Positions 9,501 through 15,500 of a DNA stretch of 64,000 nucleotides are shown here, in pieces; within the stretch, counting starts at the first letter, position 1; every line of letters starts with the position of its first letter. Location of the stretch: NCBI RefSeq assembly GCF_044324785.1, contig NZ_CP172128.1. The stretch is one strand, 5' to 3'. This DNA comes from Escherichia coli. GTDB lineage: Bacteria; Pseudomonadota; Gammaproteobacteria; Enterobacterales; Enterobacteriaceae. A program made the position numbers.

Positions 9501-12500
9501 CAGTTCGGAGGCGTCAGGCGCAAATCATGTGCGTAAAGCCAGACCAGACCGCTGCGAACGTAACGGTGCTGCCTGAGCCACTTTTGTGCGCCTTCTGTTT
9601 TGATGACCCGGATAAAGGCGTTTCTGGCCAGTGAATACACCGGCGTGCTGAAACGCCCCTGGTCCCGTTTACTTTTGAGCCTGCAGGAGAGATTGAGGTT
9701 GTTCATCAGGGCTACCGCTGCTTTCCGGTCACCGAGGAAGAACTGTAGGCCAAAGATGGCAAAGAGCGCTTTTTCATGTGGGGCCATGTCTTTCCAGCTG
9801 GTCAGTGGTTGCCCCAGTTGCGCCATGAAGCACTGGCGTGTGGACGCAACATCGAGCTGCATGTTGCGGATAAGGTTGTTCTGCTCCACAAAGGCTTCGG
9901 GGGTTAGAGCGACACGGCGCTCGGGACGTTTTTGTCCGTGGAAGAGTCTGTTGCTGTCTCCGTCAGCCAGAACGGGGGCGATAGCCGGTGACAGTGATGA
10001 AAACAGATGTGGCAGCGTGTGGATATTCAGTGGTCTGCGGGTGAAGCGGGGCTGGGCCGGATGCTGAAACCACATCCACAGAAAGCCGATCGTCATGGGA
10101 AGCAGAATCAGCCAGAGGATCCCCACGGTCTGTGACATGACATCCAGCCACTGGCTGAAAGTGATCGTTGCAGCGTTGTTGGCGGTGTTGGCCAGCAGGT
10201 TATAACGGGGGGCGGCAAAATGGTGAAAAGGCCCCCAGTCAGTCATCCCCCACATTGTGTGCAGGATCAGGCAGGTGGCAAAGACGATGTCGGGTAAAAA
10301 GAGCCAGATGAGAAGCGCAAAGAGCAGACATATGGTGCCAACGATATACCATATGTTCATCGGGTCTTCTGTTGTGGGGGAGTGTTGGTAAGACACGAGG
10401 ATTCCTCCATCGATAAATAGATAAATTTCGGGATGAGGCTGAGTGGAATTAATGCGAACAATCGCCGGTAATGACCGGGCAGGGATGAAATAACCAGGGT
10501 ATTTTCACAGGAACAGCAGAAGGCAGTGAGAGACAGGCACAAAAAAACCGACTGGTGAGGTCGGTTTTTTTGCTATTCCGGGGCGGAGTTGGTGACTCTG
10601 ACCGAAAGGGAAATCACTCTACATCTAACACCATCATAGTAGGCTGCGCTTCTCTTTTTTGCAATCAGAAAAATGACTATAATCGCTCCGTTAGCTCTGT
10701 CTGGTGATGCTTCTGCCCTTTAATAAAATATGCTCAGGTTAAAAACCGAAAACCTTCCTGCACTTCCTGCGCCTGTTCCCGTGAGTCAAACATGAGCCGG
10801 CTTTTACCCGGAACCCCCAGGAAATATATTCTACATCCACCCACTATTTTCCGTATTCTTCATACGGTCCGGATATCACTTTAGTGACAAATGCATCAAC
10901 CAGGTTCATTTTTACACCTTTCTGTTATTTTTGCTTATTACGACCAGCAGACAGCAAATATTAAAAATAACGCGGCGGTAAAAATGGCAATTTTTTCCCA
11001 TACTGTATTTTTTCCATTTATTTGCTTTGAAATGTTTTTTTGCTTCATATCAGTAAATGATTATTTTTTATTCTGTTTCCTCCAGACCCATGGTGGCACC
11101 GGATTTTCATCTGCCCATAATCCCCGTTTAAGGGCACGGGCATCGCGCTGGAGAGCCGGGAGAGTATAGTCCTTGTTGTAGTCCGGGTATACCCAGGCCG
11201 CTCCCTTCCTGATTTGCTCACGATTCGCTTCAGTGCCGTCAGCGGTATAGACTCTGCCGAGAATACGGTTATATCTGTCGGTCTGTAAGTATTGTACGGT
11301 TACAGGCTTACCGGCCACCAGGTCTTTTAACTGAGAGGCAGACCAGCGTCCAAAGGGCTGTTTCTTTTCCGGTGCATCAATATTTGCCAGGCGGACCCTG
11401 ACAGTTTTTTTATCCTGTAATATTTCCAGTGTATCACCATCAAGAACGCGGATAACGTTTCCCTGAATCTGTGCAGCGCAGAGGGAACCTGAAAAAATAA
11501 TAGCGAGAGAGAACATATATTTTATCATTTTATTACATCCTTTTTTATTCATGAAAAACAGGCGGCGTTTATATTACGGAATAATATCGTTAAGTTGAGT
11601 TTATGTTTCCGGTAATGTAATGCTTCACGCAGAGCATGAATTCCAGTAGGCTAATATTCATGATGATATAGTAACAGATATCCGGTGACAGTATGCAGGA
11701 ACATATTGATTATCAGATTGAGAAATATCAGTTCAGGGCCAGGAATGAGTCTCCGCGACTGATGCGCCAGTGGGCAGATGTCATGCGTGAATGCCGTGAT
11801 ACCGGAGCAGGAGCCAGGGAGCGGCTGCGGATTGCCTTACTTAATGTTGATTATGTGACCAGTTTTGAACTGCCGTTTCGTCTGCTGTTAACCCGGACAC
11901 CGCAGATGATTGACAGCGTGCGGCGGGAATGGCAGCTCAGCCAGAAAAAAGTCGTATTCAATGAGCGGCAGCGGGGATGTGTATACAGTCTGCAGAATGA
12001 CTTATCCGGCGTGCCGGATAGCTTCAGTTACAGTCTTGCGACGCGAATACGGCGGGTGGACAGCTATGGCATGACGACGCGTTGTTTCACTGATATAGCC
12101 GGGCAGGTTAAAGCCCCGACAGCACGGCTGAAACTGGCGCTGGAAAGCGGGTTAATTGTCACCGCGCTGGATGGTCTGTTCTGGCTTGGTATTCAGCGTA
12201 TTGCCGCAGATGTGCAGCGGCTGCGTCAGTCCGGAATGACAATCATCACCCGGGATGTTGAGGTCTCAGACTCGCTGACCGGAACCACACGGGTTGTTTC
12301 CGGGTACAGCCTTTGATTTATGCAACAAAGTATCGCAGCGTCGAATATGAGCTATGGCCAGATTTTTGTTAATCGTGGTTGTTGCAACATGTAAGGCGAA
12401 TGACCACACTATTCTGGTACGCTCGTAATCACGCTGAAATTCTGCTTCCTGTCCTGCCGTGATGAGTTCCGACCAGGACATACGGCGAAGTGTATGTCTG

Positions 12501-15500
12501 TCAGTAATATCCGTCATGAGCTCTCAGCCTCCTCCTTCGTATTTCCGTCAGAAACACAAACGCCCCGCAGAGAAAATTCGCCAACATTCTCCTTTTTAAT
12601 GGCGCGCAATGCATCGCGGCAGGCCCGTTCGGTATGAAAGGCCTGGCTGTGCACCGCCAGTGTGGGCTGACGGGCATCACCGGAAGAGACATTAAAGGGC
12701 GATGAAAGCCAGAAAATCAGTAGCCACATGCGTCACACCTCGTCCTTTTTATGCGGGTATCTGGACAGAATATTGAGCGCCTGTAATGGCGCTTCATGCA
12801 TTTCACGGATACAACGGGCATCGGTGATATTTTCCCGGTAATGTGTGGTTTCCAGCATCATATGATGCATATGGAGCATCCGGGCCAGGGCTGCGCGGAG
12901 TTCTTCAATATGTTGTTCATGGGAATGCTGGCGGGGCTGTATCCGGCAGAGAGGGATAACCTCCACATCATCCGGGTGCGCGCGAAGCCACGCGTCAGTG
13001 ACTGCAATGTCGTCAGTGTAAAACCATGTGCCGGATGTCCCGTTGGCCAGAAAACGCATTTTCCAGGCTTCTGGGGTGGCGGTTGTGTTGTTATCTTTCA
13101 TGGTGCCACCACTCATTCAACAGGCTTAATGCTGTCCAGGCGCAGTCTGCTCAGACTGTCGTGGCTGCCACAGCGGCGTCCGGTGCTTTTGCTGTAGCAC
13201 TCCTGCCCCCTGATACACCATGCCGTTGGCGTTTCGTAGAGGCTGACACGTCGGGTTTTATCTTTAATGATGAGAAGCCCGGTGTGAGTTTTTGTCTTTT
13301 TCATCGGTGGGGTACAAACGCAGAAATTTTGTTGTCATTACATCATCAGTTTTAGCCTGCAGAGACGCTGAAAAATCAGCGTTTTCAGACCCTGTTCAGG
13401 TTAGTGAATATTCTTGCCTGGCCTTTCGGCAATATCAATCCCCTGGAGTTGCATGGATATGCCCATACCGTTGACCATGAGGCTGTTTATGGACTGAACA
13501 CCACATTTCATCATGAGCTCAAAACACAGTGCGCTGAGCATGCCGAGCGCCTCTTCTGAGGACTGGCAGTGTGTATTCAAAAGAGTATTGAACTGTTTAA
13601 CGATATCCGGGGTGAGGCACATACTTTGTATTTCGTCTTTCATGACTACTCCTTATTTCAGGCATTTTGCATTTTGGGTTAATAACACGAAGCCCGTAGA
13701 CGGAAAACCTGAGGCGTTCGGATGGGATAATTCCCGGGTATTTTCCTGTTCCGGATACAAAAAATATAACGGCATGAAAAGGATTGTGGCGGACAGGAAA
13801 ACAATTAGAATAGCTGCGGGCGCTTGAGGCTGTATGCCGAAAGCGTTTTGTGGACGGCATGCAGCAGAAAGCCCCAGGCGATCTTTTTATCAATCAACCC
13901 AGGGCCCACTGTAATGCCTCAACAACATTATAGTAGCCCGATGACGGCCGAAAGGCAATGGAGGGGCTGCGATGCCACAACGAACGTTTTTAATAATGTT
14001 AATCGTCGTCTGTGTGACGATACTGTGTTTTGTCTGGATGGTGAGGGATTCGCTTTGCGGATTTCGTATCGAGCAGGGAAATACGGTGCTTGTGGCAACG
14101 TTAGCCTACGAAGTTAAACGTTAACGGGCAACACGGCGGCAGGACATCTGCCGCCGGATTGTTGCGAAGGCTGACCTCAATGCGCCTTGTTTGTCTTTTT
14201 TACCGGACGATGGATCCCACTCCTCCTCATCAGTTCGTAGCAGAGTGTACTCAGCATGGCAAGTGCAGCTTCTGATGATTTACAGTGTGTATTCAGGAGG
14301 GTAAGAAATTGTTTAAAAACATCAGGGTTTATACTGGTGCTTTGATATTCGTTACTCATAGTATTTCCTTTCAGGTCATTATTACTTCCGGATTTAACAT
14401 GATGTCTGTAACCATAAAATAATGAACGTGTTCCGGGAGTCCTTGCCGTGTAGTTTCCCGTAAAAATACTGTTGTGCATTACATGTCATTAGGTGGAAAC
14501 CGATTGTGGCAGACTGAAAATCGATTAGAATAGCGGCGGGCGCTTGAGGCTGTATGCTGAAAGCGTTTTGTGGACGGCATGCAGCAGAAAGCCCCAGGCG
14601 ATTTTTTTATCAATCAACCCAGGGCTCTACTGTAATGCATCGACAACATTATAGTAGCCCGATGACGGCCGAAAGGCAATGGAGGGGCTGCGATGCCACA
14701 ACGAACGTTTTTAATAATGTTAATCGTCGTCTGTGTGACGATACTGTGTTTTGTCTGGATGGTGAGGGATTCGCTTTGCGGATTCCGTGTCGAGCAGGGA
14801 AACACAGTGCTTGTGGCAACGTTAGCCTACGAAGTTAAACGTTAACGGGCAACACGGCGGCAGGAAATCTGCCGCCGGATTGTTGCGAAAGCAAACCTCA
14901 ATGCGCCCTTTTTTACCTGGATTTCTGCAGCGCGTTTCAGCATAGCATGCAGTTCTGTGCTGATCCTTGCTTCCAGTCGGGCAGTTTGTGTTGCAGATGG
15001 CATGATTTGTACTTCCTGAATATACTGAACGGCAAATTGCCGTATTGTGCTAATTACAGTCTGATACAGGGACGGCAGACAGGCATTCTGCCTGAAAAGA
15101 AAAAGCCGGTTCAGAGAAAACCGGCTGACGGATTACCGTCTAACAGTTGGTCGCTACCTTACAATACTTCTGCAACAGGCACACCGGCAACTTTTTCCCA
15201 TTCTTTAACCCGATACCGAATCATCTGCGGGAAACGCTCTTTGTACTCATATCCACGTGCAGCCATGGTGTGCATGGTGTTGGCCAGCGTCCTTGCTGAG
15301 ATGCCGGAGATTTCAAGAGGGATCATCGGCAGACTCACATAGGTGGTGTGGATTTCCAGCTTGCCGTCTTCAGCAACTGTTCGGGTGAAGTTGTGAATAT
15401 CCAGACCAATCACATCCATGACATTGTTTGGGTAAATGCGCACATACAGCATGGTGCCGTTTTTAATGTCGATCCCGAAATAGCAACTCTTCGAGAATGA

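Follow-up and report, generated by a model that had tools for sequence, protein, structure and literature searches.

What are the five small genes that lie between a thermonuclease gene (nuc) and the pnd repeats of an Escherichia coli conjugative plasmid, and do they make up one system? The genes occupy positions 11693 to 13304 of a 64,000-nucleotide stretch of contig NZ_CP172128.1 (RefSeq assembly GCF_044324785.1), referred to here as the window. An original prediction, made from the DNA letters, had described them as a single compact cluster and a candidate defence-type module. Our comparisons of sequences and gene neighbourhoods point instead to two independent accessory units: p207, a gene for a predicted DNA-binding regulator, and p63-p127-p71-p83, an operon whose members have relatives in temperate phages and whose last product resembles the ANRs (AraC negative regulators). 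With a probability of roughly 40%, we favour the reading that a nuc-linked winged-helix regulator lies beside a phage-derived operon that modulates transcription through protein-protein contacts. The genes have long been in databases as 'hypothetical'; what is new is the modular split, the ANR-like assignment and an uncurated phage domain in p127. The reality of the genes, their family assignments, their modularity and their distribution are all well supported.

All five predicted open reading frames (ORFs) were found exactly where they had been placed, p207 on the plus strand (11693..12316) and p83 (12266..12517), p71 (12514..12729), p127 (12733..13116) and p63 (13113..13304) on the minus strand, with p63 as first and p83 as last gene of the operon. 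The small ORFs are as tightly packed as claimed. More specifically, p63 shares 4 nt (ATGA) with p127 if the long start of p127 is used (the NCBI annotation pipeline, PGAP, starts it at 13101, for 122 aa), a gap of 3 nt separates p127 from p71, and a 4-nt overlap (ATGA) recurs between p71 and p83. The convergent p83 and p207 overlap by 51 nt, such that the non-conserved C-terminal tail of p83 covers the 3' end of p207. A strong Shine-Dalgarno sequence (AAGGAGGAGG) precedes p83 and a similar motif precedes p71. From this packing, p63-p127-p71-p83 probably form a translationally coupled operon. Two features noticed earlier can now be attributed to individual genes: the signal-peptide-like N-terminus is the hydrophobic N-terminus of p71 (MWLLIFWLSSPF) and the His/Met-rich stretch belongs to p127 (LHMHHMML). 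A further 63-aa ORF (12501-12692) that overlaps p71 is a shadow frame of p71. A sixth gene, p80 (13401..13643, minus strand), absent from the original list, lies 96 nt upstream of p63.

A second lineage of the four small genes, with about 72% DNA identity, is carried by pO113-like and pSTEC-type IncK2/Z plasmids with order and frames kept. Amino acid identity to the pO113-like copy is 73% for p63, 70% for p127, 78% for p71 and 54% for p83, the last over the core only. A third set, found in E. coli chromosomes, has 96-98% DNA identity and 92-100% amino acid identity, also with frame and order kept. Selection was assessed with Nei-Gojobori estimates of nonsynonymous and synonymous differences, as proportions (pN, pS) or corrected rates (dN, dS), using the divergent ~72%-identical lineage as reference unless stated otherwise. 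The dN/dS ratios are 0.065 for p71, 0.12 for p127 and 0.13 for p63, while p83 gives pN 0.33 and pS 0.82 (dS saturated). Compared with chromosomal homologues of 64-66% identity, p207 is constrained (pN 0.25, pS 0.74), and p80 shows 70-71% amino acid identity and a dN/dS of 0.17 against chromosomal islands. These comparisons indicate that all five ORFs are real, conserved genes under purifying selection. They are also, as the original prediction held, uncharacterised, being labelled 'hypothetical' in databases; they carry coding signal and have no annotated function.

The window derives from an IncK2/Z (I-complex) conjugative plasmid with an MPF_I transfer system, 99.9-100% identical to plasmids such as pLS45-2. 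The gene order runs trbC-trbB-trbA, an AgrB-like RNA remnant, nuc (minus strand), p207 (plus), p83/p71/p127/p63 (minus), p80 (minus), two tandem hok/sok (pnd) units, excA and traY. Thus the earlier placement in an exclusion and maintenance slot stands in so far as trbA/nuc to pnd(hok/sok)-excA is a variable accessory slot of the I-complex, but the plasmid is IncK2/Z and not R64-type IncI1. For the IncI1 backbone we relied on the gene table of pESBL, in which a FinQ-like gene occupies this slot (PMC4288162). Such trbA-pnd-excA cargo of IncI1 plasmids (R64, pESBL) shares the backbone position and is dispensable for transfer in the plasmids studied (PMC4288162), but its sequences are unrelated to the genes described here and FinQ-type plasmids lack them.

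Within this slot and beyond it, p207 is found without the four small genes and they without it, and where both are present their relative arrangement differs, contrary to the idea of one five-gene cluster. The window has the arrangement nuc <-> p207 -> <- p83 p71 p127 p63. In plasmid pSTEC2018_166-c the operon lies across nuc (trbA-dqlB-dqlB-[p83<-p71<-p127<-p63]<-nuc<->p207), and a pO113-like plasmid has the order trbA-dqlB-[p83 p71 p127 p63]-nuc<->p207, with epeA and the insertion sequence (IS) IS1 between p63 and nuc. Chromosomes of extraintestinal pathogenic E. coli (ExPEC; ST131, FDAARGOS_1290) carry the operon together with p80 but no more of p207 than a 3' stub, amid IS debris beside iha and with sat or the pap operon within ~10 kb. 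Solitary p207 homologues, for their part, are widespread, both on the chromosomes of Enterobacterales and on plasmids of Klebsiella and Vibrio. The only pair that stays together across I-complex plasmids is nuc and p207, which are divergent in both architectures. From these arrangements, we conclude that the region is composed of two independent accessory units. The operon is common: of 5426 complete E. coli genomes, 992 carry it at 95% identity or above, with 800 occurrences on chromosomes and 259 on plasmids. It is accompanied by p80 on chromosomes; p80 has no place in the pO113-like version and is therefore not an obligate part of the operon. Some database entries (P0132, P0157) join the p127 N-terminus in frame to the p83 C-terminus, which implies operon deletion variants without p71.

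The original prediction could name no family for any of the five products; profile searches now place p207 in a named family and relate the small proteins p63, p71 and p83 to others. p207 is a full-length member of the ECs1377 family (NCBIfam NF052300), scoring 301 bits against a cut-off of 190 with residues 17-205 aligned to model positions 2-190 of 190. A Pfam HTH_39 winged helix (PF14090) was detected at residues 146-207 (E 2.4e-5), and the ECs1377 family alignment reveals a second, N-terminal copy of the winged-helix motif that includes the invariant LLNVDYVTSFELPFRLLL block. The best AlphaFold2 (AF2) model of p207, with a mean predicted local distance difference test score (pLDDT) of 88 and a predicted template modelling score (pTM) of 0.81, has winged helix-turn-helix (wHTH) units at 41-99 and 142-206. 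The AlphaFold database model of a 98%-identical protein superposes on it with a TM-score of 0.96. Comparison of p207 with PDB structures returned generic wHTH matches only, and a sequence search of the PDB gave no meaningful match. On sequence and model, p207 can safely be assigned as a predicted DNA-binding regulator with tandem winged-helix domains. Chromosomal members in Citrobacter, Kosakonia, Enterobacter and Serratia share 63-68% identity with it, and the plasmid clade is set apart from the rest of the family solely by its pairing with nuc. A literature search on the ECs1377 family yielded no studied member, the single match merely listing a locus tag. We also considered whether p207 corresponds to pCT_066, the 'sigma factor' deleted in the IncK plasmid pCT, and rejected this candidate, as the published primers do not match the window (PMC3377399, PMC4083329).

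The partner gene nuc (11061..11552, minus strand) encodes a secreted thermonuclease of the SNase family, as matched by Pfam SNase and annotated by PGAP as 'thermonuclease family protein' from a later start (155 aa); matches to NCBIfam thermonuclease models are weak. Between nuc and p207 lies a divergent intergenic region (11553..11692) in which blocks are partly conserved between the window and a second locus (L021), without a clear operator repeat and with promoter matches at the consensus level only. We infer that this region houses the promoters and a putative p207 operator. Elsewhere, p207-family genes have other neighbours. In Kosakonia chromosomes (L012-L014, 8001-8648) one is located directly upstream of a type VI secretion system (T6SS) cluster (VipA/VipB/VasE/DotU/Hcp/ClpV), and in an E. 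coli island (L008-L011) another sits beside Hha, AlpA and zinc-ribbon genes with ImpA/VasL genes a few kb off. A regulatory link of the p207 family to T6SS is conceivable from such neighbourhoods.

The first three operon products have relatives in phages. p63, a very basic protein (pI 9.95) with three cysteines, matches phrog_1226 (E 7.1e-17, positions 1-63 of 67) and the further PHROG families 7520, 5148 and 4183; its tblastn homologues, 44-53% identical, come from temperate phages, Stx2a phages included, where they lie among small early genes close to those for exonuclease and integrase. p71 has a conserved hydrophobic N-terminus and a pair of conserved cysteines; it matches phrog_3766 (E 2.5e-11, positions 1-65 of 66), and tblastn homologues of 40% identity in Klebsiella phages lie among small early genes and keep both the MW-LI-W N-terminus and the two cysteines. 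Sequence searches of the PDB with p63 and p71 gave no meaningful match, and Pfam found nothing in p63, p71, p80, p83, their homologues or the p127 relatives.

p127 consists of a beta-rich N-terminal domain, confined to E. coli, and a C-terminal helical domain, identified by profile search. The full-length family comprises 44 clusters, and every organism-named one is from E. coli. The profile search collected 82 representatives at E<=1e-3, of which about 60 match positions ~65-115 only and have unrelated N-termini. This C-terminal domain of ~50 aa (window 12733-12900; ALxRMLxMHxxMMxKxNxxxSFYDAxCIREMNEAPxQA) is helical, with near-invariant R, M, H, S, D, C, E, P and Q residues, is shared by the C-termini of numerous early proteins from phages and prophages, and corresponds to no family found in Pfam, NCBIfam or the PDB. 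The gene for one such protein (L030, 6001-6669) belongs to the early region of a Mu-like prophage, where it is flanked by gemA and by a gene resembling those for dATP/dGTP pyrophosphohydrolase. An AF2 model of p127 built from a 7-sequence alignment was of insufficient quality for a structure search (pLDDT 59).

By these matches, the operon resembles a group of accessory genes from phage early regions that have taken up residence in plasmids and islands. The comparison is with the early ORFans of temperate phages (lambdoid/Stx ea-type genes and the Mu-like semi-essential region): p63 and p71 fall into phage families, the p127 domain recurs there, and the genes are likewise small, tightly packed and co-directional. 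Here, in contrast, they sit on a conjugative plasmid or in pathogenicity islands without other phage genes. The kinship is at the protein level only, as blastn of the operon against phage genomes gave no match and no phage in the collection has all four genes.

The last product, p83, is a small basic protein of 83 aa (9.49 kDa, pI 9.7), in the size range of the ANRs. ANRs such as Aar are anti-activators of <10 kDa that bind AraC/XylS regulators and H-NS (PMC4038620, PMC4983702, PMC5570504). Among six p83-family members tested, the ANR_neg_reg model NF033650 was the top NCBIfam match in all and the sole match in four, over model positions 4-52 of 54. An independent hidden Markov model (HMM) built from six annotated plasmid ANRs was run on eight p83-family members and on 2000 shuffles of each; six of the members outscored every one of their shuffles. 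The ANR signature is A10, E14, A22, W26, A29, W43 and R47 (PMC4983702). When p83 was aligned without gaps to Aar (taken from pAA of enteroaggregative E. coli (EAEC) 042), the p83-family consensus kept five of these seven residues (A10, E14, A22, W26, A29) as well as a C-terminal Cys. p83 thus resembles the ANRs (Aar of EAEC, Rnr, Cnr) in size, in ungapped alignment over most of the 54-position model, and in carriage by plasmids and islands of pathogenic E. coli. We nevertheless stop short of assigning p83 to the family and describe it as ANR-like, because its scores are sub-threshold and its signature is incomplete. PDB (by sequence) and Pfam searches with p83 gave no meaningful match. In public records, p83 homologues (P0244, P0249; L021, 1800-2072) bear the propagated and evidently spurious names 'neurotensin receptor R8' or 'flagellar biosynthesis protein FlgM'; a literature search on the former returned nothing useful. 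An annotated ANR of 155 aa on Yersinia ruckeri pYR4 (L024, 16-483), with the domain at its C-terminus, lies beside a DUF2786 gene and has no AraC neighbour in the fetched stretch; ANR domains therefore exist on plasmids without an adjacent activator.

The reading that we favour would work as follows. p207 would bind the intergenic region that it shares with nuc and control transcription there, of its own gene and perhaps of nuc. The operon would be a phage-derived cassette that tunes transcription via protein-protein contacts, with p83 binding a host or plasmid regulator of H-NS type or AraC/XylS type as Aar does; this mechanism is proposed because ANRs such as Aar bind AraC/XylS regulators and H-NS. 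What we infer in this scheme is where p207 binds DNA, which regulators p83 contacts and what p63, p127 and p71 might do.

Several observations weigh against it. On the p207 side, only one of the five AF2 models is confident and the other four are poor, p207 is tied to nuc and to the operon by adjacency alone, and its homologues beyond the I-complex plasmids have no nuc neighbour. On the operon side, p63, p127 and p71 offer no functional handle. Most of the points concern p83. The window protein scores 16.2 bits with NF033650, below the curated cut-off of 32, and five other family members, at 15-29 bits (E down to 6.7e-7), all fall below it as well. The signature W43 is replaced by Leu throughout the family, and R47 by His or Lys. 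The equivalent of this helix-3 tryptophan in Aar, W45, is required for activity (PMC4983702). The window allele keeps three of the seven signature residues, two alanines being lost (Gly at A10, Thr at A22). Profile-profile alignment (hhalign) of p83 with Aar or with a six-sequence ANR profile found the same register at E 0.003-0.01, with a probability below 10%. Between plasmid and chromosomal alleles, the dN/dS of p83 is 0.42, the highest of the set. Finally, p83 ends a four-gene operon instead of standing alone beside its activator (compare cfaD-ANR), and no AraC/XylS gene was seen beside the operon in the window or in the chromosomal and sister-plasmid contexts examined.

Other explanations have been weighed against the same evidence. 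Small phage-derived genes can mediate superinfection exclusion, and the five genes might jointly shield their host, or the plasmid itself, against phages or rival plasmids, as the original prediction suggested in calling them a defence-type module. Relatives of the plasmid carry exclusion or fertility-inhibition cargo in this slot (excA is nearby, and FinQ is found in IncI1; PMC4288162), and nuc next door does match a PADLOC SNase model (PDLC01096). Yet a PADLOC check (PADLOC-DB v2) of all the proteins (p207, p83, p71, p127, p63 and also p80) found no defence-model match, none of the five contains a recognisable enzymatic, NTPase or sensor domain, the genes are not inherited as a single unit, and most copies reside in ExPEC virulence islands rather than defence islands. 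We regard joint defence or exclusion as very unlikely, the argument for a defence module being one of position and nothing else; nor is the operon likely to be an enzyme-based defence system. The small proteins could also be of the phage counter-defence or host-takeover kind, inhibiting host restriction, nucleoid proteins or other defences and so aiding establishment of the element. Such a role would fit the finding that p63, p71 and the C-terminal domain of p127 have homologues among the dense small early genes of temperate phages, as well as the small size and lack of enzyme domains of the products and the carriage of the operon by two kinds of mobile element. What makes this unlikely in our judgement is that the operon lies outside the plasmid leading region (ardA, psiB and ssb lie beyond oriT/nikB) and is kept at high identity in degraded, IS-ridden chromosomal islands, where an establishment function is of little use; also, no known anti-defence protein was matched, in a search made without a dedicated anti-defence library.

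A further possibility is that the operon is a functionless remnant of an old prophage or plasmid, kept by linkage to iha/sat islands or to the plasmid backbone. The chromosomal copies do lie amid IS fragments and pseudogenes with a truncated p207 stub, PGAP often skips p83 or p63, the deletion/fusion variants P0132 and P0157 exist, and constraint on the plasmid p83 allele is relaxed, as its dN/dS given above indicates. Strong purifying selection across lineages of 72% identity (dN/dS 0.065-0.13 at dS 1.3-2.0), however, and the retention of gene order and close spacing in three different contexts make mere hitch-hiking rather improbable. Still harder to credit is an addiction module that adds to the hok/sok and DinQ-like systems, with p71 as a small membrane toxin neutralised by a neighbouring gene. 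This would suit a slot rich in type I loci (two sok/hok, the AgrB-like RNA, and dqlB in relatives) and the conserved hydrophobic N-terminal segment of p71; but that stretch, at ~11 residues, is too short for a membrane span, the two conserved cysteines and polar body of p71 are more like those of a small secreted or soluble protein, neither NCBIfam nor PADLOC gave a toxin-antitoxin family match, and a four-gene layout is atypical for toxin-antitoxin modules. We therefore consider it highly improbable.

Type I toxin-antitoxin sequences lie on either side of the two units. On one side, a tandem pair of hok/sok (pnd) units spans 13401-14913 with a period of 720-721 nt, their sok sequences at 13818-13974 and 14538-14695. 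A small gene in divergent orientation lies ahead of each unit, p80 for one and p100 (14177-14479) for the other; p100 is a p80 paralogue with 60% identity over 48 aa. A 2026 genome-wide association study of IncK2 plasmids found a hypothetical gene next to hok/sok to be associated with chicken-derived plasmids (PMC12987596). On the other side, between trbA and nuc, an AgrB-like antisense RNA (Rfam RF02891) was detected at 10539-10628 on the minus strand (50.4 bits against a gathering score of 40). A tblastn search of the window found no intact DinQ-like toxin ORF (dqlB), of which sister plasmids carry one or two there. The AgrB-like locus looks like a type I toxin-antitoxin locus minus its toxin.

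What follows from the analysis is a corrected annotation, the split of the region into two modules and the removal of a false 'defence system' lead. The carriers are of interest in themselves: the operon sits beside iha and sat in the chromosomes of ExPEC, ST131-type strains among them, and is also carried by epidemic IncK2/Z resistance plasmids; despite this commonness, every one of its products is labelled 'hypothetical' or spuriously named. A bolder version of the reading that we favour, to which we give rather long odds, is that the operon is an unrecognised phage-derived host-modulation cassette, in which p83 would represent a partner-less ANR-like subfamily acting on H-NS/Hha and the other three proteins would be complexed with p83. 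If this were true, such a cassette would be fixed in about one fifth of sequenced E. coli, tuning horizontally acquired virulence or transfer genes, and p127 would bring a new phage domain of ~50 aa. In these settings, a role for a small ANR-like anti-activator in modulating the expression of virulence or plasmid genes would be plausible and could be tested.

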